From Escherichia coli (GTDB taxonomy: Bacteria > Pseudomonadota > Gammaproteobacteria > Enterobacterales > Enterobacteriaceae): a stretch of DNA of 64,000 bases. Location of the stretch: NCBI RefSeq assembly GCF_003334255.1, contig NZ_QOWU01000001.1; one strand, written 5' to 3'. Positions 18,338 through 53,232 of this stretch are shown piece after piece. The translations under genes were made by a program, and so were the position numbers. Below the pieces are notes generated by a model, which saw only the letters and a list, made by a program, of their open reading frames with translations, did not search any database and was not told the DNA's origin. Position 1 is the stretch's first letter, and each line of letters starts with the position of its first letter.

Positions 18338-18470
<133 letters not shown>

Positions 18471-18485
18471 CGTTATATGGAAAAA

Positions 18486-20468
18486 TTAACGGCTCTGCTT
18501 TCTCAACAAATAGATAAAATATGGCGCGCCGATAAAGGTTGACAGCAGCCCCGCCGGGATCTGGAATGGAAACAGCACCATCCGCCCACACCAGTCAGCG
18601 AACACCAGCAGTAAACCACCCACCAGCGCCGAAATTACGATGTGTGGCATCGTCCGTCGAAAGCCCATCATCCGCGCAATATGCGGTGCCATTAAACCAA
18701 CAAAACTCAACGGTCCAATAGTCATCGTCGCGGTCGCCGTCAGGCAAGCCGCTAACAGCAGCAGCGCAATTCGCGTCGGCGTCAGCGCCATTCCTACGGC
18801 TCGGGCGGTATCACCACCCAGCGGTAAAATGGTCAGCCAGCGGCGGCACAGCGGGGTAATCGCCAGCAAAATCACCATCACAATTCCGGTGCGCCAGACC
18901 TGCGCATCGGTCGCGTTGTAGGTCGAACCGGAAATCCAGGTCAGCACTTGCGCCATTCGCGGGTCACCACTTGCCTGCAACATCATCAAAAGCATGGTGA
19001 ACGCGGTGCTTAACGCCATCCCCGCCAGTAACATACGGTGTGGGGAAAATCCACCGCGGCCGGCGGCGATCATAATGATCAACAGCGTCACCGCCGCGCC
19101 GAGACTGCCTGCAGGTAACAGCCAGCCAAAGGCATTACCCGGCACCAGAAACAGCATCAACACCACGCCAAACGCCGCGCCGGAGCTAATCCCCAGCACT
19201 TCCGGGCTTGCCATCGGGTTTCCGGTCAGTCGCTGAATAATACAGCCCGCCACCGCCAGCATGACGCCCGCAAACAGCGCCGCCATAATTCGCGGCCAGC
19301 GCCAGGGCATTAAATCCTCGAGCAACGCCCCGCTCGCCCACGTCCAGCCGTGCGCATCACGACCAAACGACAGCGCCACCACCACAGCCATCAACAGCAG
19401 CACGCCGCCCGCGAGGGCAAACGCCAGCACATGTTGGCGTTCAGCCGCGACACGATCGTTGACCTTCATATCCGGCGCGCTAATGCTGCGTAAACGCGGC
19501 AACAGCCACAGTAGCAGCGGCGCACCGATCAACGCAGTGACCGAACCGGTGGACACTTCCATCCACACGCGAGTCAGCCAGAGGATGATTTGATCGGAAA
19601 GCCAGAGGATCAGCGCACCAATCAACGACGCCAGCATCAGTCGTGGCAGCAGACGCCGCGCCCCCAGCATTTTTGCCAGCAGCGGCGCGAACAACCCGAT
19701 AAAGCCGATAATCCCCACAGCGTTCACCAGCAGCGCACTGATGACAATCGCCAGCGACAGCGCCGCCAGACGCGCAAGCGACAAGGCCAGCCCGAGATTG
19801 CGCGCCACGCCATCATCAAGCCCCATCAGGGTTAACGGACGAAGTAGCAGCAACGTCAGCATCACACCGCCCAGCAGCTGCGGCCATAAACGCTCAACGC
19901 CGCCCCAGTCGGTTTGCGTCAGCGTTCCAGTGCTCCACAGAAACATGCTTTGCAGTTGGTCATGATGGAAGATAACCAGTAACTGATTGATTGCGCCGCA
20001 ATAAAGGCTCACTACCAACCCCGCGAGAATCAGCGTTACCGGCGACAGCCGTTTCCCCCACGCGACGCCAAAGACAATTAAGCCAACAACACAAGCCCCT
20101 GCCAGCGCAGCAAACTGGCTCGCCATCGCACCAGGGATCGCCCAGAGCGTAGTGACGGTAATCCCCAGTTGCGCGCCTGTAGCAACGCCAAGCGTCGTCG
20201 GCTCCGCCAGCGGGTTACGCAGCACTTGCTGAAACAGCACGCCCACCAGCCCCAGACCCGCGCCCACCAGCAGCGAAATCGCCAGACGCGGCAACAAGCT
20301 GTAGTGAAAAATCATCTGCTCGATGACGTCAATATCCGGCGACCAGGCAGCCTGCGCCCACTGGCTACGCGGCAGCGCCTGCGAGAAGTTCATCCAGGTG
20401 AGCGCCGTAGCGACAATCACTAACAGCGCCAGCAATAACGCCGGGAAAAGCGCAATTCGTTTACTCAC
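18486..20468 (-). CDS. fhuB: Ferric hydroxamate ABC transporter permease (fused double-domain)
   Basis: 660-aa highly hydrophobic ORF MSKRIALFPALLLALLVIVATALTWMNFSQALPRSQW... Confidence 0.95.
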   Translation of the reverse strand: MSKRIALFPALLLALLVIVATALTWMNFSQALPRSQWAQAAWSPDIDVIEQMIFHYSLLPRLAISLLVGAGLGLVGVLFQQVLRNPLAEPTTLGVATGAQLGITVTTLWAIPGAMASQFAALAGACVVGLIVFGVAWGKRLSPVTLILAGLVVSLYCGAINQLLVIFHHDQLQSMFLWSTGTLTQTDWGGVERLWPQLLGGVMLTLLLLRPLTLMGLDDGVARNLGLALSLARLAALSLAIVISALLVNAVGIIGFIGLFAPLLAKMLGARRLLPRLMLASLIGALILWLSDQIILWLTRVWMEVSTGSVTALIGAPLLLWLLPRLRSISAPDMKVNDRVAAERQHVLAFALAGGVLLLMAVVVALSFGRDAHGWTWASGALLEDLMPWRWPRIMAALFAGVMLAVAGCIIQRLTGNPMASPEVLGISSGAAFGVVLMLFLVPGNAFGWLLPAGSLGAAVTLLIIMIAAGRGGFSPHRMLLAGMALSTAFTMLLMMLQASGDPRMAQVLTWISGSTYNATDAQVWRTGIVMVILLAITPLCRRWLTILPLGGDTARAVGMALTPTRIALLLLAACLTATATMTIGPLSFVGLMAPHIARMMGFRRTMPHIVISALVGGLLLVFADWCGRMVLFPFQIPAGLLSTFIGAPYFIYLLRKQSR

Positions 20469-21355: not shown

Positions 21356-22152
21356 CAATAAACAAAACTCACAGGTGCAGCACCCGCCGGATGCGGCAAA
21401 ATACCCATCGGGATGCCATAAATCATTTCGAGGGTTTCGCCGCGCATAATTTCCGCAGGCGTTCCCTGAGCAATCATTTCACCGCCGCGCAGGGCGACCA
21501 GATAATCACAGTAGCGTGCCGCCATATTGATATCGTGCAACACGGCAATGACCGTCAGGCCACGCTCCTGACTTAAACGGTGCACCAGCGACAGCACATC
21601 AACCTGGTGGGCGATATCCAGCGCCGAGGTCGGTTCGTCGAGCAACAGACAACGGCTATCCTGCGCCACCAGCATGGCGATCCACGCCCGCTGACGTTCG
21701 CCGCCAGAGAGACTATCGACCAGCCGATGCGCCAGCGGTTTTAAGCCAACCAGCGAGATAGCTTCCTCGACTTTTTCGCGATCTGCCGCCCCAAAGCGCC
21801 CCAGCGCGCCATGCCACGGGTAACGACCAATCGCCACCAGTTCACGCACGGTCATCCCTTCTGCCGGAGGAAGCTGCTGCGGCAAATAAGCCACTTTGCG
21901 GGCAAACGCTTTGCTGCTCCAGCTTTCCAGCGGTTGGGCATCAAGAAGAATCTCCCCTTCCGACGGCGGCTGATGACGGCCAAGCATTTTGAGCAGAGTG
22001 GATTTACCAGAACCGTTGTGACCAATCAGACCGGTCACTTTCCCGGCAGGAAAGGTTAACGACAGCGGATGCAAAAGCGTGCGCCCGGGCACACGAAAGG
22101 AGATATTACGCAGTGCAAAAGTGGTATCGGAATGATTCGTGTATTCCTGCAT
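21355..22152 (-). CDS. fhuC: Ferric hydroxamate ABC transporter ATP-binding protein
   Basis: ORF-track entry 21355..22194 contains MQEYTNHSDTTFALRNISFRVPGRTLL... with Walker A GHNGSGKST; trimmed to 265 aa. Confidence 0.93.
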   Translation of the reverse strand: MQEYTNHSDTTFALRNISFRVPGRTLLHPLSLTFPAGKVTGLIGHNGSGKSTLLKMLGRHQPPSEGEILLDAQPLESWSSKAFARKVAYLPQQLPPAEGMTVRELVAIGRYPWHGALGRFGAADREKVEEAISLVGLKPLAHRLVDSLSGGERQRAWIAMLVAQDSRCLLLDEPTSALDIAHQVDVLSLVHRLSQERGLTVIAVLHDINMAARYCDYLVALRGGEMIAQGTPAEIMRGETLEMIYGIPMGILPHPAGAAPVSFVY

Positions 22153-24665: not shown

Positions 24666-27200
24666 TTAATTACTACCAAACATATCCTTGATCCAACCGG
24701 CTACACCGTCGCTGTCTTTCTGCTCTTGCTGAGCAGGTTGCTGTTGCGGCTGTTGCTGCGGCTGAGAAGACTGATCAAACGGATTGCCTGACGGCTGCTG
24801 CTGCATCTCGCTCTGCTGGCACAGCGATTGCGGATCGCTGGTCCAGACCGGCAAGATACGCATGCCACCGCTGCAAACAAAGTTGCCGTCGTAGTCCACG
24901 CCCATATCTGCAATATCTTCTGGCGGAACAAGATTCAGCGGCGTTGGCGTCTGGTTAGCCAGATAACGCTGATAAATCGACATTGCCCCGCTGGCACCAT
25001 ACAGTTTGGTCGGCTGGTTGTTATCACGGCCGACCCAGGTGATGGTCACCGTGCTGCCGTCAATGCCCGCAAACCAGGTATCTACGTTATTGTTGGTAGT
25101 CCCTGTTTTCCCTGCCAGATGCAGGTTCGGGTATTTCGCCCCAAGCTGACGACCCGTACCGCGTTGTACCACCTGCTGCATGGTCCATAGTGTCAGATAC
25201 GCCGCCTGCGCCGGAACAGCGCGTTCCGCCTGCGGGAAGCTCTGATACAGCACTTTGCCATCTTCCGCGATTACCGAACGCAGCGCAGAAAGCGGTGCAC
25301 GGTTACCACCGCTGGCGATGGTCTGGAATGCCTGCGCCACTTCGATTGGCGTTAAGTTCAACGCCCCCAGCAGCATTGCCGGAACCGGATGCAACTGATC
25401 TTTCGGTACGCCCAGTTTAATCCAGGTCTCCGTAACCGCAGGCAGCCCCAGCGCCATCCCCAGATTTACCGTCGGCACGTTCATCGAACGGGTCAACGCA
25501 TCCACCAGCATCACTCTGCCGCTTTCGCTATAACGACGGTCATCATTCTGCGGTGACCAGACCTGGCCATTCGGCTGACGCAGCGCAATTGGCGCATCCG
25601 CAATCCACGTATTCAGACGATAGATTTTCGGCTGGCTTAAGGCCGTCAGATAAGTCGCTGGTTTTGCAAGGGAACCAATCGAACGACGCGCCTGCATCGC
25701 ACGGTTGTAGCCCGCAAACTGCGGCTCAGAACCTCCGACCATCGCACGAACTTCACCACTAAAGCGGTCGACGACCACAATCGCAGTTTCAAGATCGCTC
25801 AACTTACGCTGTTTCTTCAGTGCCGGAATGCCTTCCACGGCGGCTTTTTCTGCCGCGTCCTGGGCCACCGAGTCAAAGGTAGTGAAGATCTTCACGCCGG
25901 AGAGATCTTTTACCTTATCGCCCAGTTTTGCCTGCAGCTCCTGACGCACCAGTTGCATAAAGGCTGGCTGAGGAGAGATCACCCCACCGCGCGGCTGAAC
26001 CCCCAGCGGACGGGCACTCAACATGTCATAGAGTTCTTGATCAATAATCTGTTGCTGTTGCAGCAGACGCAGCACCAGATTACGTCGCTCCAGCGCCAGT
26101 TTTGGGTTACGCCACGGGTTGTAGATGGACGCCCCTTTCACCATACCGACTAACAGCGCCTGCTGGTCGAGGCTTAGCTCTTCTACCGGGCGACCAAAGT
26201 AATACAAGCTTGCCAGCGGGAAGCCGCGGATTTCGTTGTCGCCGCTCTGACCGAGATACACCTCGTTCATATACAGCTCAAGAATACGGTCTTTGCTGTA
26301 ACGCGCGTCCATGATCAGCGCCATGTAAGCTTCGTTCGCTTTACGCCAGTAAGAACGCTCGCTGGAGAGGAACAGGTTTTTCACCAGCTGTTGCGTCAGC
26401 GTACTCGCACCCTGTACCGTGCGTCCGGCGGTCAGGTTTGCCAGCACCGCACGTCCGATTGAGTAGAGACTGATTCCATCATGCTCGTAAAAATGACGGT
26501 CTTCTGTCGCCAGCAAAGTATCCACCAGCAAATCCGGGAAACCACTGCGCGGCACAAACAGACGCTGCTCACCGTTTGGCGAAGAGATCATGGTGATCAG
26601 ACGCGGATCAAGACGGAAGAAACCGAACTGACGGTTGTTCTCCATATTGACGATCGTCGCCAGATGATCGCCATCAAAGGTCAGACGCGCGCGCACCTGT
26701 CCTTCTTTACTGTCCGGGAAATCAAACGGACGGCGAATCATCTCAATGCTGTTGGCCTGCACGGTAAATTCGCCAGGACGGGTCATTTTCGACACCTGAC
26801 GATACTGGGTCGCCTCCAGCAGCTTCACCATCTCGTTCTTGCTGATGGTCATGTCTGGCTCAAGATTGACCATTCGGCCATAAACTGCCGCAGGCAGTTG
26901 CCAGACCTTGCCATCAATACGGCTACGAATTTTTTGATCGAGATAAACGCCGTAAATGGCGATCAGCACGGCAAAAACGATAGCCAGTTTTAGCAGTAGC
27001 CATAGCCAGCCGCGTTTGCCACGAGGCTTACGCCCTTTGCCTTTGCCCTTACCTTTGCGCGGCATCGGTTCTTCATCCTCATAGTCATCATAATCGTCGT
27101 AATCATCGTCATCTTCGTAACGACGACGGCTTACCTTTTGTTTGACCGGACGCGTCGGTTTCCCTTTGCGTCCAATTGGCTCGCGGTCATTCCCGGCCAT
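24666..27200 (-). CDS. mrcB: Penicillin-binding protein 1B (bifunctional glycosyltransferase/transpeptidase)
   Basis: ORF-track entry 24666..27215 contains [56 protein letters not shown]...; trimmed to 844 aa. Confidence 0.95.
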
Positions 27201-27296
27201 GCTTTTTCTCCGCAATATTCAGGCGCAAAAGCCCGATTTTCTGTTCTTCTGTTACAAGACAGAAGAAGATATCTCTCAAAATTTGTGCTCGATCGG

Positions 27297-27385
27297 TCCC
27301 CTCTCCCTTGAGGGAGAGGGTTAGGGTGAGGGTGAACGTGCGCGCTGATGCCCTCACCCCGGCCCTCTCCCACAGGGAGAGGGAG
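27297..27385. repeat. GC-rich nested palindromic intergenic repeat (three consecutive hairpins; boxC/RSA-like, family not verified)
   Basis: CCCTCTCCC-TTG-AGGGAGAGGG, then GGGTGAGGGTGA...CCCTCACCCC, then CCCTCTCCC-ACAG-GGAGAGGGAG, in the hrpB-mrcB spacer. Confidence 0.5.
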
Positions 27386-27395
27386 AAAACCAACC

Positions 27396-29825
27396 TTACG
27401 AATACTTTTTCGTCCGTCGCGTCGGTGCAGTATTTGCCGGGTCGTCCGGCCAGACATGTTTGGGATAACGCCCTTTCATCTCTTTTTGCACCTCACGGTA
27501 CGCTCCTTTCCAGAAGGCGCTCAAATCTCGTGTGATTTGTAATGGCCTTTGGGCAGGTGAAAGCAACTCCAGCACCAGCGGCACGCGCCCCTGGGCGATC
27601 GTCGGATTGGTGGCCTCGCCAAACATCTCTTGCATTCTCACCGCCAGCGCGGGCGGGTTATCTTCATGATAACGAATGGCGATCCGGCTTCCCGTCGGCA
27701 CAGTGTAATGCGCAGGCAATTCACTATCCAGACGTTGCTGCATTCCCCAATCAAGTAATCCGCGTAGTGCCTGATAAATGTCGAGTGATTTCAGGCCGCG
27801 TAGTGAATGTACGCCAGTCATATGTGGCAGCAGCCACGTTTCCAGCGCTGCCAATAAACTTTCATCATCAACCGCTGGCCAGTCATATTCCGGCAACCAC
27901 TTTGCGGCGCATAACAAACGCAAGCGTAGCTGTTCCGCTTCCGCCGTCCAGTTGAGCACGCTTAAACCTTTATCACGGATGCCATTAAGCATCGCCTGAT
28001 GCAACTCGTCTTCTGACGGTTTCGCCAGCGGCTGCATTTTCACCGTCAACTGACCGATTTGTAGCCGACGCCAGGCTTTCAGCGTACCTTGCGCGTCATC
28101 CCACTCCACAGTGTCAGACTGCTGTACCAGCTGCGGGCAGCGTTGTACTAACTCATCAATATCGACCAGCAGCGCCAGTAAAATCCGCGCATCCGGCGAG
28201 GCGCTGCCCTGCAATAATAACGGTGCGATCAACCATTCGTGGCGGCTTAGCGCGTCGTTGGCATCGAGCATCGCTCCCATGCCGTTTGCCAGTTGATAGC
28301 GTCCATCTTGCCCACGGCGACGAGCAATGCGATCGGCAAACGCCCCGGCAAGTAGCGGCGCGATAAGCGAACTGTCTGCCTCACCGCCACGTACGTTTAA
28401 GCGTTTTAACAGTTGCTGACTACGTTGCTGCCAGGCTGGTTGATTGCGCGAAAACGCCACGCCCAGGTCACTATTGCCCATCCGTGGCGGCTCTTCGAGA
28501 ATGGCGGCAATTTTTGCCGCGGTAGCAGCTTCGTCGTCGTTCTTCGCGCTAACCAGCATTGCCGCTAAACGCGGATCGTTACCCAGCGCTGCCATTTTTT
28601 GCCCTTGCGCACTAAGCCGTTCACCCTCCAGTGCCCCCAGCATTTGTAACAGACGTTTCGCGGCCAGTAGATTCACTACTGGCGGTTGATCCAGCCAGCT
28701 CATCTGCGCCGGATCGCTGCATCCCCATTGCAGTAATTCCATCAGCAAACCGGAAAGATCGCTTTGTAAGATCTCCGGTTCACTTTGCGCCGCGGCGCGT
28801 TCTGCTTGTTCTTTGGCGATTAAATGCAGGCTGATACCCGGCTCCAGACGCCCGGCGCGCCCGGCACGCTGCGTCATGGATGCCTGGCTAACGCGTTGAG
28901 TAATCAGTCGCGTAAGCCCCGTGCGCGGATCAAAACGCGCCACACGCTCCTGGGCACAATCCACCACCAGACGAATACCTTCAATGGTTAAACTGGTTTC
29001 AGCAATATTGGTCGCCAGCACCACTTTGCGCATCCCTTGCGGTGCCGGGAGGATCGCTTTTCGCTGATCGTTCAGCGACAACGCGCCATACAGCGGGCAG
29101 AGCAATACATCACTGCCGATGCGCGAAGCCAGTTGTTCCTGCACACGCTGAATTTCTCCGACGCCAGGTAAAAATAACAGTAATGATCCGCTTTCCTGAC
29201 GCAGCATTTCAGCGGTGGCTACCGCAACGGCATCGTCAAAACGCTGATGCGCGGGCAGCGGTAAATAACGGCGTTCAACCGGAAACGAGCGCCCTTCTGA
29301 GATGACGACAGGCGCTTCTGGCAGCATTTGCTGCAAGCGGTCGTTGTCCAGGGTAGCCGACATAATCAGCAGTTTAAGGTCATCACGCAGACCTTGTTGC
29401 ACATCGAGTAACAGCGCCAACGCCAAATCCGCCTGCAAGCTGCGCTCATGAAATTCATCAAGGATCACCAGTCCAACACCGCTCAGTTCCGGGTCACGCT
29501 GGATCATGCGCGTCAGCACGCCTTCGGTAACCACTTCCAGGCGGGTATTCGGCCCGACGCAGTTTTGCGCACGCATCCGGTAGCCAACGGTATCGCCTGG
29601 CTTTTCGTTAAGCAGCTCCGCCAGCCGTTGCGCGACGTTACGCGCCGCCAGACGACGCGGCTCCAGCAGGATAATTTTCCCGTTAATGCCGGGATGCGCC
29701 AGCAGTTGCAGCGGCAGCCAGGTTGATTTCCCGGCCCCGGTCGGCGCACTTAATAATACCTGCGGCGCACAATCGAGAGCGGTAAGTAATTCAGGTAAGA
29801 CGGCAGCAACGGGCAACGACGACAC
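27396..29825 (-). CDS. hrpB: ATP-dependent RNA helicase HrpB (DEAH-box)
   Basis: ORF-track entry 27396..29870 contains ...SSLPVAAVLPELLTALDCAPQVLLSAPTGAGKST...DEFHERS...; trimmed to a GTG start giving 809 aa. Confidence 0.9.
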   Translation of the reverse strand: MSSLPVAAVLPELLTALDCAPQVLLSAPTGAGKSTWLPLQLLAHPGINGKIILLEPRRLAARNVAQRLAELLNEKPGDTVGYRMRAQNCVGPNTRLEVVTEGVLTRMIQRDPELSGVGLVILDEFHERSLQADLALALLLDVQQGLRDDLKLLIMSATLDNDRLQQMLPEAPVVISEGRSFPVERRYLPLPAHQRFDDAVAVATAEMLRQESGSLLLFLPGVGEIQRVQEQLASRIGSDVLLCPLYGALSLNDQRKAILPAPQGMRKVVLATNIAETSLTIEGIRLVVDCAQERVARFDPRTGLTRLITQRVSQASMTQRAGRAGRLEPGISLHLIAKEQAERAAAQSEPEILQSDLSGLLMELLQWGCSDPAQMSWLDQPPVVNLLAAKRLLQMLGALEGERLSAQGQKMAALGNDPRLAAMLVSAKNDDEAATAAKIAAILEEPPRMGNSDLGVAFSRNQPAWQQRSQQLLKRLNVRGGEADSSLIAPLLAGAFADRIARRRGQDGRYQLANGMGAMLDANDALSRHEWLIAPLLLQGSASPDARILLALLVDIDELVQRCPQLVQQSDTVEWDDAQGTLKAWRRLQIGQLTVKMQPLAKPSEDELHQAMLNGIRDKGLSVLNWTAEAEQLRLRLLCAAKWLPEYDWPAVDDESLLAALETWLLPHMTGVHSLRGLKSLDIYQALRGLLDWGMQQRLDSELPAHYTVPTGSRIAIRYHEDNPPALAVRMQEMFGEATNPTIAQGRVPLVLELLSPAQRPLQITRDLSAFWKGAYREVQKEMKGRYPKHVWPDDPANTAPTRRTKKYS

Positions 29826-53129: not shown

Positions 53130-53232
53130 TCATGCCGGATGCGGCGTGAACGCCTTATCCAGCCTACAAAATTGTGCAAAATCAATGGATTGCACAGCTA
53201 GCGTAGGCCTGATAAGCGTAGCGCATCAGGCA
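53130..53232. repeat. REP/BIME cluster between convergent gcd and cueO
   Basis: CATGCCGGATGCGGCGTGAACGCCTTATCCAGCCTAC and inverted GTAGGCCTGATAAGCGTAGCGCATCAGGCA fit the REP consensus. Confidence 0.65.

Follow-up and report, generated by a model that had tools for sequence, protein, structure and literature searches.

A catalogued BoxC pair and a separate, conserved putative leader hairpin in the hrpB-mrcB spacer of Escherichia coli

Introduction

What is a long GC-rich palindrome doing in the short spacer between hrpB and mrcB of Escherichia coli, and does it serve either gene? The window, by which we mean the whole 64,000-nt stretch of DNA that was analysed, is K-12-like E. coli DNA in reverse complement relative to MG1655, and its minus strand carries fhuA, mrcB and hrpB. 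Given that all three genes lie on the minus strand, the feature is the entire 195-bp hrpB-to-mrcB spacer, inside which the RefSeq K-12 annotation has no feature. An initial annotation made from the sequence alone had placed the repeat in this spacer, which agrees with the gene boundaries given below, and had offered a terminator, an mRNA-stability element or an influence on mrcB expression as its possible roles.

27396..29825, minus strand: hrpB coding sequence, stop codon 27396-27398 (ORF list; RefSeq K-12 hrpB, 162105-164534, mapped to the window)
24666..27200, minus strand: mrcB (PBP1b) coding sequence, ATG 27200-27198, Shine-Dalgarno GGAG 27208-27211

Results

Fold of the palindrome

The repeat had been described as a nested palindrome built from two GC-rich motifs, and both motifs are present at the positions named. 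The CCCTCTCCC/GGGAGAGGG motif occurs four times in the 64-kb window, always within 27299-27383 (expected 0.22; none of 100 shuffles reaches four), and GGGTGAGGG/CCCTCACCC occurs twice in the window, at 27324-27332 and 27351-27359. A repeat finder returned three local hairpins, formed by 27299-27308/27311-27320, by 27363-27371/27375-27383 and by the central arms, together with an imperfect 27-nt inverted repeat (27306-27332/27351-27377). On the minus (transcribed) strand the sequence folds into the stable structure that had been anticipated, at -74.2 kcal/mol (z = -8.4; none of 200 shuffles was equally stable). The minimum-energy fold is a single long nested hairpin, whereas the alternative with three separate hairpins reaches only -53.5 kcal/mol. 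The three consecutive hairpins of the initial annotation thus exist as local hairpins but are not the preferred fold.

No REP core, GCC(G/T)GATG(A/C)G(A/G)CG with up to two mismatches, was found within 27201-27395, and the REP clusters of the window are located elsewhere (18342-18426, 21385-21398 and 53134-53163), in line with the earlier statement that the repeat does not fit the REP consensus. At a permissive threshold, Rfam gave sub-threshold microRNA-precursor matches to the long hairpin alone (at most 29 bits, where the threshold is 74), which we rejected as false positives on a long hairpin. A promoter scan of the spacer returned no promoter-like site.

Identity of the repeat

The BoxC family has been known since the 1990s. 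By sequence identity, the palindrome is almost certainly a convergent pair of its members (also named PIT, TMECO or HPGQ), which together with conserved flanks makes up a 106-bp quasi-palindrome right after the hrpB stop codon.

27285..27390, minus strand: composite BoxC unit, 106 bp; in the hrpB-to-mrcB direction, GTTTTCT flank, type B, spacer, inverted type A, GACCGATCGAGCAC flank
27350..27383, minus strand: BoxC/TMECO type B (CCG loop), CCCTCTCCCTGTGGGAGAGGGCCGGGGTGAGGGC; TMECO no. 1, HPGQ no. 5; found by consensus regex
27334..27349, no strand: inter-arm spacer, 16 nt, GAACGTGCGCGCTGAT, between the type A and type B arms
27299..27333, plus strand: BoxC/TMECO type A (TTA loop), CCCTCTCCCTTGAGGGAGAGGGTTAGGGTGAGGGT; TMECO no. 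2, HPGQ no. 6; found by consensus regex

The published consensus, CCCTCNCCC-N3-6-GGGNGAGGG-N3-GGGNGAGGG (Holder et al. 2015 NAR, PMC4666352), matches one copy per strand, at 27299-27333 (+) and 27383-27350 (-), and is also present at five other K-12 loci. Table 1 of that study lists 23 TMECO copies in MG1655, with no. 1 at 164,547-164,580 (+, type B) and no. 2 at 164,631-164,597 (-, type A), and the arms in the window are letter for letter no. 1 (27383-27350, -) and no. 2 (27299-27333, +). Putative conserved G-quadruplexes HPGQ no. 5 (midpoint 164569) and no. 6 (164608) have likewise been placed between hrpB and mrcB (Kaplan et al. 2016 NAR, PMC5100583). Inverted pairs are reported at five K-12 sites, each with one type A and one type B copy (PMC4666352), and at hrpB-mrcB, too, a type A copy (TTA loop) faces a type B copy (CCG loop). 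Both copies are therefore already catalogued in published tables of 2015-2016, and the palindrome is ordinary because it is a catalogued E. coli BoxC pair.

Alignment of four convergent K-12 pairs indicates that the repeat unit exceeds the 34-37-nt motif and extends from GTTTTC(T/C) to GGGGACYGATCGAGCAC, here 27390-27285, with an inter-arm spacer of 16 nt at this locus compared with 26-27 nt in the other three pairs (10-11 nt shorter). The proposed BLASTN count shows the element to be multi-copy: the 106-nt core matches 62,846 places, spread over 5337 of the 5426 complete E. coli genomes (median 12 and maximum 26 places in a genome), and all K-12 BoxC copies fetched are intergenic. The initial annotation had suspected the boxC/RSA class. 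RSA repeats have a consensus of about 150 bp, and given the complete match to BoxC nothing remains to be assigned to RSA. An association of BoxC with phages was rejected, with four weak matches among 50,697 phage records. Among plasmid records, 343 of 72,556 match BoxC, mostly in part, and several of the top matches are megabase-sized records.

Alleles within Escherichia

A 501-bp query across the spacer has a match in all 5,426 E. coli genomes, and at least 80% of this locus lies in one place in only 3536 of the 5426, the remainder being, among the matches listed, a 399-bp allele with a 93-nt spacer that lacks BoxC (about 35% of E. coli genomes). This empty 93-nt spacer is seen in the aligned alleles of E. 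coli SK1144 and FDAARGOS_1371, and also in E. albertii and Escherichia sp. MOD1-EC7003. Occupied alleles vary in turn. The O157:H7 allele has a few substitutions, O145 RM9872 has lost one 12-bp unit (GGGAGAGGGTTA), and O111:H8 SF4-1 has lost 64 bp between the two direct copies of CCCTCTCCC, so that one hairpin remains; Escherichia sp. E1V33 carries the 64-bp-deleted form as well. Both the 12-bp and the 64-bp deletion lie between direct repeats, and they fit, at the DNA level, the strain-to-strain instability of TMECO described by Holder et al. (PMC4666352).

In E. coli 2018-05-2CC (locus L010, 300-450), the entire unit with its flanks occupies the same place in the opposite orientation. A minority of E. 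coli carries this allele, 34 genomes at 99% identity or more, with strain 88-3493 (H71) among the entries, and another Escherichia genome (L016) has a deleted derivative of it. We rejected a simple in-situ inversion as the origin of the opposite allele, because the outer flanks travel with the element and differ in sequence. No target duplication stands out clearly when the empty, full and inverted junctions are compared, and the empty site, GAAGACCAAAG, bears a weak likeness to the element ends. We infer an empty ancestral state in Escherichia, with the element arriving later, an order that rests on three empty-allele lineages and that recombination could blur. An old deletion instead of an insertion is also possible, given the lack of a clear target duplication and the weak likeness of the empty site to the element ends. 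Other BoxC pairs also vary across the 5,426 genomes: those at alx-sstT (L005) and ygfF-gcvP (L004) fall into several allele classes, including a 75-bp shorter form, a ~220-bp longer form and a one-sided loss of similarity. When these two loci were examined for empty sites, their alleles proved complex, with partial deletions and replacements.

It is likely that this dispersed repeat is dispensable, entered part of the E. coli lineage by insertion and has been decaying via slippage between its internal direct repeats, and that it is not a dedicated regulator of mrcB. The initial annotation had raised an influence on mrcB expression. A required role is unlikely, since about a third of E. coli (~35%) and E. 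albertii lack the element while the mrcB-proximal 80 nt are unchanged, and since both orientations occur.

The same slot in other genera

We compared 80 loci across genera, fetched with MrcB as the query. All loci examined conserve the 80 nt that precede the mrcB ATG, and the stretch right after the hrpB stop is variable. Nothing occupies this slot in Citrobacter youngae, Lelliottia nimipressuralis or Buttiauxella. A solo type B BoxC, oriented opposite to K-12, fills it in many Enterobacter, Huaxiibacter and Leclercia, and Lelliottia sp. V86_10 has a full pair, again opposite to K-12. Pseudocitrobacter has a pair of the K-12 type, with the K-12 orientation and short spacer, in 2.5 tandem copies, and two other genomes have longer arrays, the tandem arrays reaching five motifs. 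BoxC-occupied slots are found upstream of position 1201 in loci L027-L076 (for example L035, L046, L052 and L061).

The K-12 unit and the Pseudocitrobacter faecalis unit at the same locus are identical at 101 of 106 positions, whereas the K-12 unit matches its own K-12 paralogs at just 86-92 of ~103 aligned positions. Between Escherichia and Pseudocitrobacter, the C-terminal 150 residues of HrpB are ~83% identical and MrcB is ~88% identical. The slot has thus been occupied repeatedly, either by site-preferring insertion or through ancient presence with many losses.

Judged by eye, the slot is REP-like (GCC.GATAAGGCG...CGCC.TCCGGC) in Salmonella (L017/L082), some Citrobacter (L019) and Leclercia (L043/L044), and the slot after the hrpB stop may collect different intergenic repeats. 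In several genomes of Enterobacter, Leclercia and Kosakonia, a hairpin with a T-run, resembling a terminator, lies between the BoxC remnant and the mrcB leader. Such a hairpin directly upstream of the leader block was confirmed by a terminator scan in Enterobacter L029 (1087-1121); similar ones were noted by eye in L027, L034, L037, L044, L061, L070 and L073, and the scan of L027 returned no terminator-like site.

A separate hairpin in the mrcB leader

The AT-rich hairpin reported alongside the repeat is present as a perfect 9-bp stem with a 6-nt loop (27244-27252/27259-27267; the earlier 27248-27268 was approximate). It had rightly been set apart from the repeat, as it belongs to a conserved mrcB leader and not to BoxC. 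The leader block of ~80 nt is conserved across Enterobacteriaceae and consists of TTGAGAGAT, a stem, GA(A/G)AATC, a second stem, GGAG and the ATG.

27201..27279, minus strand: mrcB-proximal leader, TTGAGAGAT, hairpin 1, GA(A/G)AATC, hairpin 2, GGAG, ATG (49-sequence alignment and 80-locus spacer comparison)
27244..27267, minus strand: leader helix 1, the AT-rich hairpin, 9-bp stem and 6-nt loop
27220..27235, minus strand: leader helix 2, 5-bp GC-rich stem, nearly invariant

Covariation in helix 1 (9 bp) and helix 2 was tested in 49 sequences of different genera (alignment A3, loci L014-L090). For both helices together, 93% of cells are paired, compared with ~50% after a shift of the partners by 1-3 columns, and two-sided changes occur in 46 cells against 15 +/- 4 in shuffles, with none of 500 shuffles reaching 46. 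Helix 1 alone is 92% paired; its inner four pairs have 9-17 compensatory cells each, and compensatory changes are found in four or five pairs. Read on the sense strand, G-U pairs (47 cells) are far above A-C pairs (8 cells), which points to an RNA stem of the sense strand and not to a DNA or antisense structure. Helix 2 is nearly invariant, so these data say little for or against it. The covariation pattern therefore points to an RNA structure for the AT-rich hairpin, a conserved stem of the mrcB leader on the sense strand.

Rfam had no match on the mrcB leader, and the literature searched contained no paper describing a conserved mrcB leader hairpin. For the mrcB transcription start, the Cappable-seq and SMRT-Cappable-seq supplements held no match to these coordinates or gene names, and no useful report of an mrcB promoter came out of literature phrase searches. 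A predicted promoter, TTGAGA-17-TGTAAC, is listed in the spacer by Shimada et al. 2014; this promoter (hexamers at 27279-27274 and 27256-27251) overlaps the AT-rich hairpin, and other genera do not conserve its -10 hexamer, TGTAAC. Genomic SELEX has also placed in-vitro binding of holoenzymes with RpoD, RpoH, RpoF and RpoE in the spacer (Shimada et al.), which suggests a sigma-independent affinity. The SELEX probe position, 164,658 (about 27272 in the window), is given by the 2017 study only (Shimada et al.).

The leader and the slot can be read together in a bolder way, as a previously undescribed, conserved cis-acting mrcB RNA leader of Enterobacteriaceae next to a recurrent BoxC landing slot after the hrpB stop. 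This joint reading of the comparative data is possible, though we lean against it. Its landing-slot part builds on the whole units that sit there, in one orientation or the other, in Escherichia, Enterobacter, Leclercia, Lelliottia and Pseudocitrobacter, and if it is true, BoxC is a mobile, site-preferring element and goes beyond a mere unstable motif.

Transcript 3' ends at the hairpin

A curated, published Term-seq set (Adams et al. 2021, PMC7815308) places an RNA 3' end at K-12 164,636 (+), on the M63 0.4 sheet (minimal glucose), with 987 reads and the class 'orphan'. Converted to the window, this end lies 5 nt beyond the last stem G and 102 nt past the hrpB stop. It was called in one of three growth conditions only, and 987 reads is a low count (PMC7815308).

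27294, minus strand: Term-seq RNA 3' end (K-12 164,636, plus strand; coordinate converted in this analysis)

Given that this end falls 5 nt past the hairpin foot, the hairpin is probably an incidental 3'-end barrier for hrpB mRNA. By analogy with REP hairpins, transcription of hrpB would turn the BoxC unit into the hrpB 3' UTR, where it would fold as one very stable hairpin. Longer transcripts would then be trimmed back by 3'-to-5' exonucleases as far as the hairpin foot or, as an alternative step, RNA polymerase would be released at the foot without a U-tract, and either trimming or release would leave a 3' end 5 nt past the stem. Whether the hairpin acts at hrpB-mrcB as an occasional exonuclease barrier or release point for weakly expressed hrpB transcripts is an even call. 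We are similarly divided on whether such a barrier effect might be a by-product of hairpin stability and not a selected function.

Other BoxC loci give a mixed picture. At lldD, the 3' end at 3,781,065 has an intrinsic-terminator score of 1.3 (cut-off 3.0) in a region scored as Rho-terminated (PMC7815308), and it falls 4 nt past the BoxC hairpin. For 10 other K-12 BoxC loci, the curated Term-seq data have no 3' end at the foot position predicted, and ilvC transcripts read through BoxC and end at the following hairpin. Earlier reporter work on PIT elements, as summarised by Holder et al. (PMC4666352), detected no promoter or terminator activity.

Two further sites lie next to BoxC elements. A strong Term-seq 3' end in the fepB leader (L003; K-12 624,680, -; ~103,000 reads) lies 4 nt before the fepB-entC BoxC pair, and thus 5' of the element and not at its 3' foot. 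After the ppiC terminator hairpin (K-12 3,959,499, -) comes GTTTTCTCCC, where the adjacent BoxC begins with its left flank, and the BoxC flank may supply part of the ppiC terminator T-run.

Could the element instead be an intrinsic, Rho-independent terminator of hrpB? A very stable transcribed-strand hairpin does stand right after the hrpB stop, an RNA 3' end does lie 5 nt past the stem, and the K-12 spacer has no other terminator-like structure, while some Enterobacter have a classical one there. However, an intrinsic terminator has a GC-rich stem followed by a U-run, and here the U-tract is missing after the stem (GGGGACCGAUCGAGCACAAAUUUUGAG; the tail 3' of the stem is GACCGAUCGAGCAC). A terminator scan of both strands of 27100-27500 returned no terminator-like site, and PIT elements were inactive as terminators in the work cited by Holder et al. 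(PMC4666352). In addition, the ilvC transcript, which is highly expressed, runs past a solo BoxC, and the lldD 3' end is below the cut-off and Rho-associated. This makes an intrinsic terminator improbable. For the terminator or mRNA-stability role put forward at the outset, the 3'-end or stability idea has some support from the Term-seq end at the hairpin foot, and the terminator is not supported, with neither a U-tract nor a terminator-like site.

Non-B DNA and the spacer reading frame

Each arm contains a canonical G3N3G3N3G3N3G3 run, a motif that the 64-kb window has only three times in all; the arms have the three blocks and four G3 runs that an intrastrand triplex or G-quadruplex requires. 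The third canonical four-run G-quadruplex motif of the window lies at 20242-20265 (-), GGGCGCGGGTCTGGGGCTGGTGGG. The G-rich arms could therefore be proposed to work as a regulatory switch, in which a triplex or G-quadruplex tunes hrpB or mrcB transcription, all the more as consensus oligonucleotides adopt a triplex or G4 in vitro (PMC4666352, PMC5100583) and RNA polymerase holoenzymes with four sigma factors bind the spacer in vitro. Against this, in-vivo DMS footprinting showed no triplex, addition of the complementary strand gave duplex, and the copies follow no regulatory pattern by position or gene class (all PMC4666352). Moreover, the SELEX probe centre (~27272) falls in the conserved leader and outside BoxC, and the ~35% of E. 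coli that lack the element, the two orientations and the unchanged mrcB leader count against a switch as they do against a required role in mrcB expression. We consider such a switch very doubtful.

A 68-codon open reading frame also crosses the spacer.

27187..27393, minus strand: 68-codon ORF with a TTG start, crossing the BoxC pair and entering mrcB (ORF list)

Some GenBank records annotate this ORF as a hypothetical protein, and a 2024 paper (PMC10869245), which names it D8B36_18480, reports a curli and adhesion phenotype, with lowered curli expression, for the fragment expressed from pUC19. That the ORF encodes a real 68-aa protein that lowers curli production is scarcely credible, since natural alleles destroy the ORF (the 93-nt allele lacks it, the 64-bp deletion shifts its frame and the inverted allele has lost it), it starts with TTG and is mostly translated BoxC repeat and mrcB leader, RefSeq does not annotate it, its database relatives are E. 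coli and Shigella hypothetical proteins only, and the multicopy phenotype could equally come from RNA, a DNA element or titration of an mrcB-leader binder. We therefore rejected it as a gene; judging from the alleles, it is probably not a gene and a possible mis-annotation, and the pUC19 curli effect may arise from the RNA or from the DNA element.

Discussion

Our analysis gives a fairly confident answer to the question posed by the hrpB-mrcB spacer: a BoxC pair that is probably a dispensable insert and perhaps an incidental 3'-end barrier, beside a separate leader hairpin. What may be new is the conserved mrcB leader hairpin, which could bear on the control of PBP1b synthesis, together with the recurrent occupancy of the slot in either orientation. 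The hrpB-mrcB locus is a compact natural experiment on BoxC function and spread, as empty, full, internally deleted and inverted alleles occur in one species and other genera show independent occupancy.

Several known systems invite comparison. ERIC/IRU-type miniature inverted-repeat elements are likewise short, non-coding and quasi-palindromic, with presence/absence polymorphism and both orientations at one site, but in the BoxC unit neither a target-site duplication nor terminal inverted repeats distinct from the body can be defined. To our knowledge, BoxC has no mobilising enzyme, and we know of no dedicated transposase of the RAYT kind for it. REP/BIME elements are also dispersed GC-rich palindromes after stop codons, with RNA 3' ends at the hairpin foot. 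They are nevertheless another sequence family, whose core is absent from the hrpB-mrcB spacer, and the role of 3' stabiliser of the upstream mRNA is that of REP/BIME. The closest likeness is to the catalogued BoxC/PIT/TMECO/HPGQ copies, with which the hrpB-mrcB element shares its sequence, consensus, inverted pairing of types A and B, intergenic position, multi-copy nature and deletions between strains. It differs from them in having perfect arms without a mismatch triplet and a shorter inter-arm spacer, and in nothing essential.
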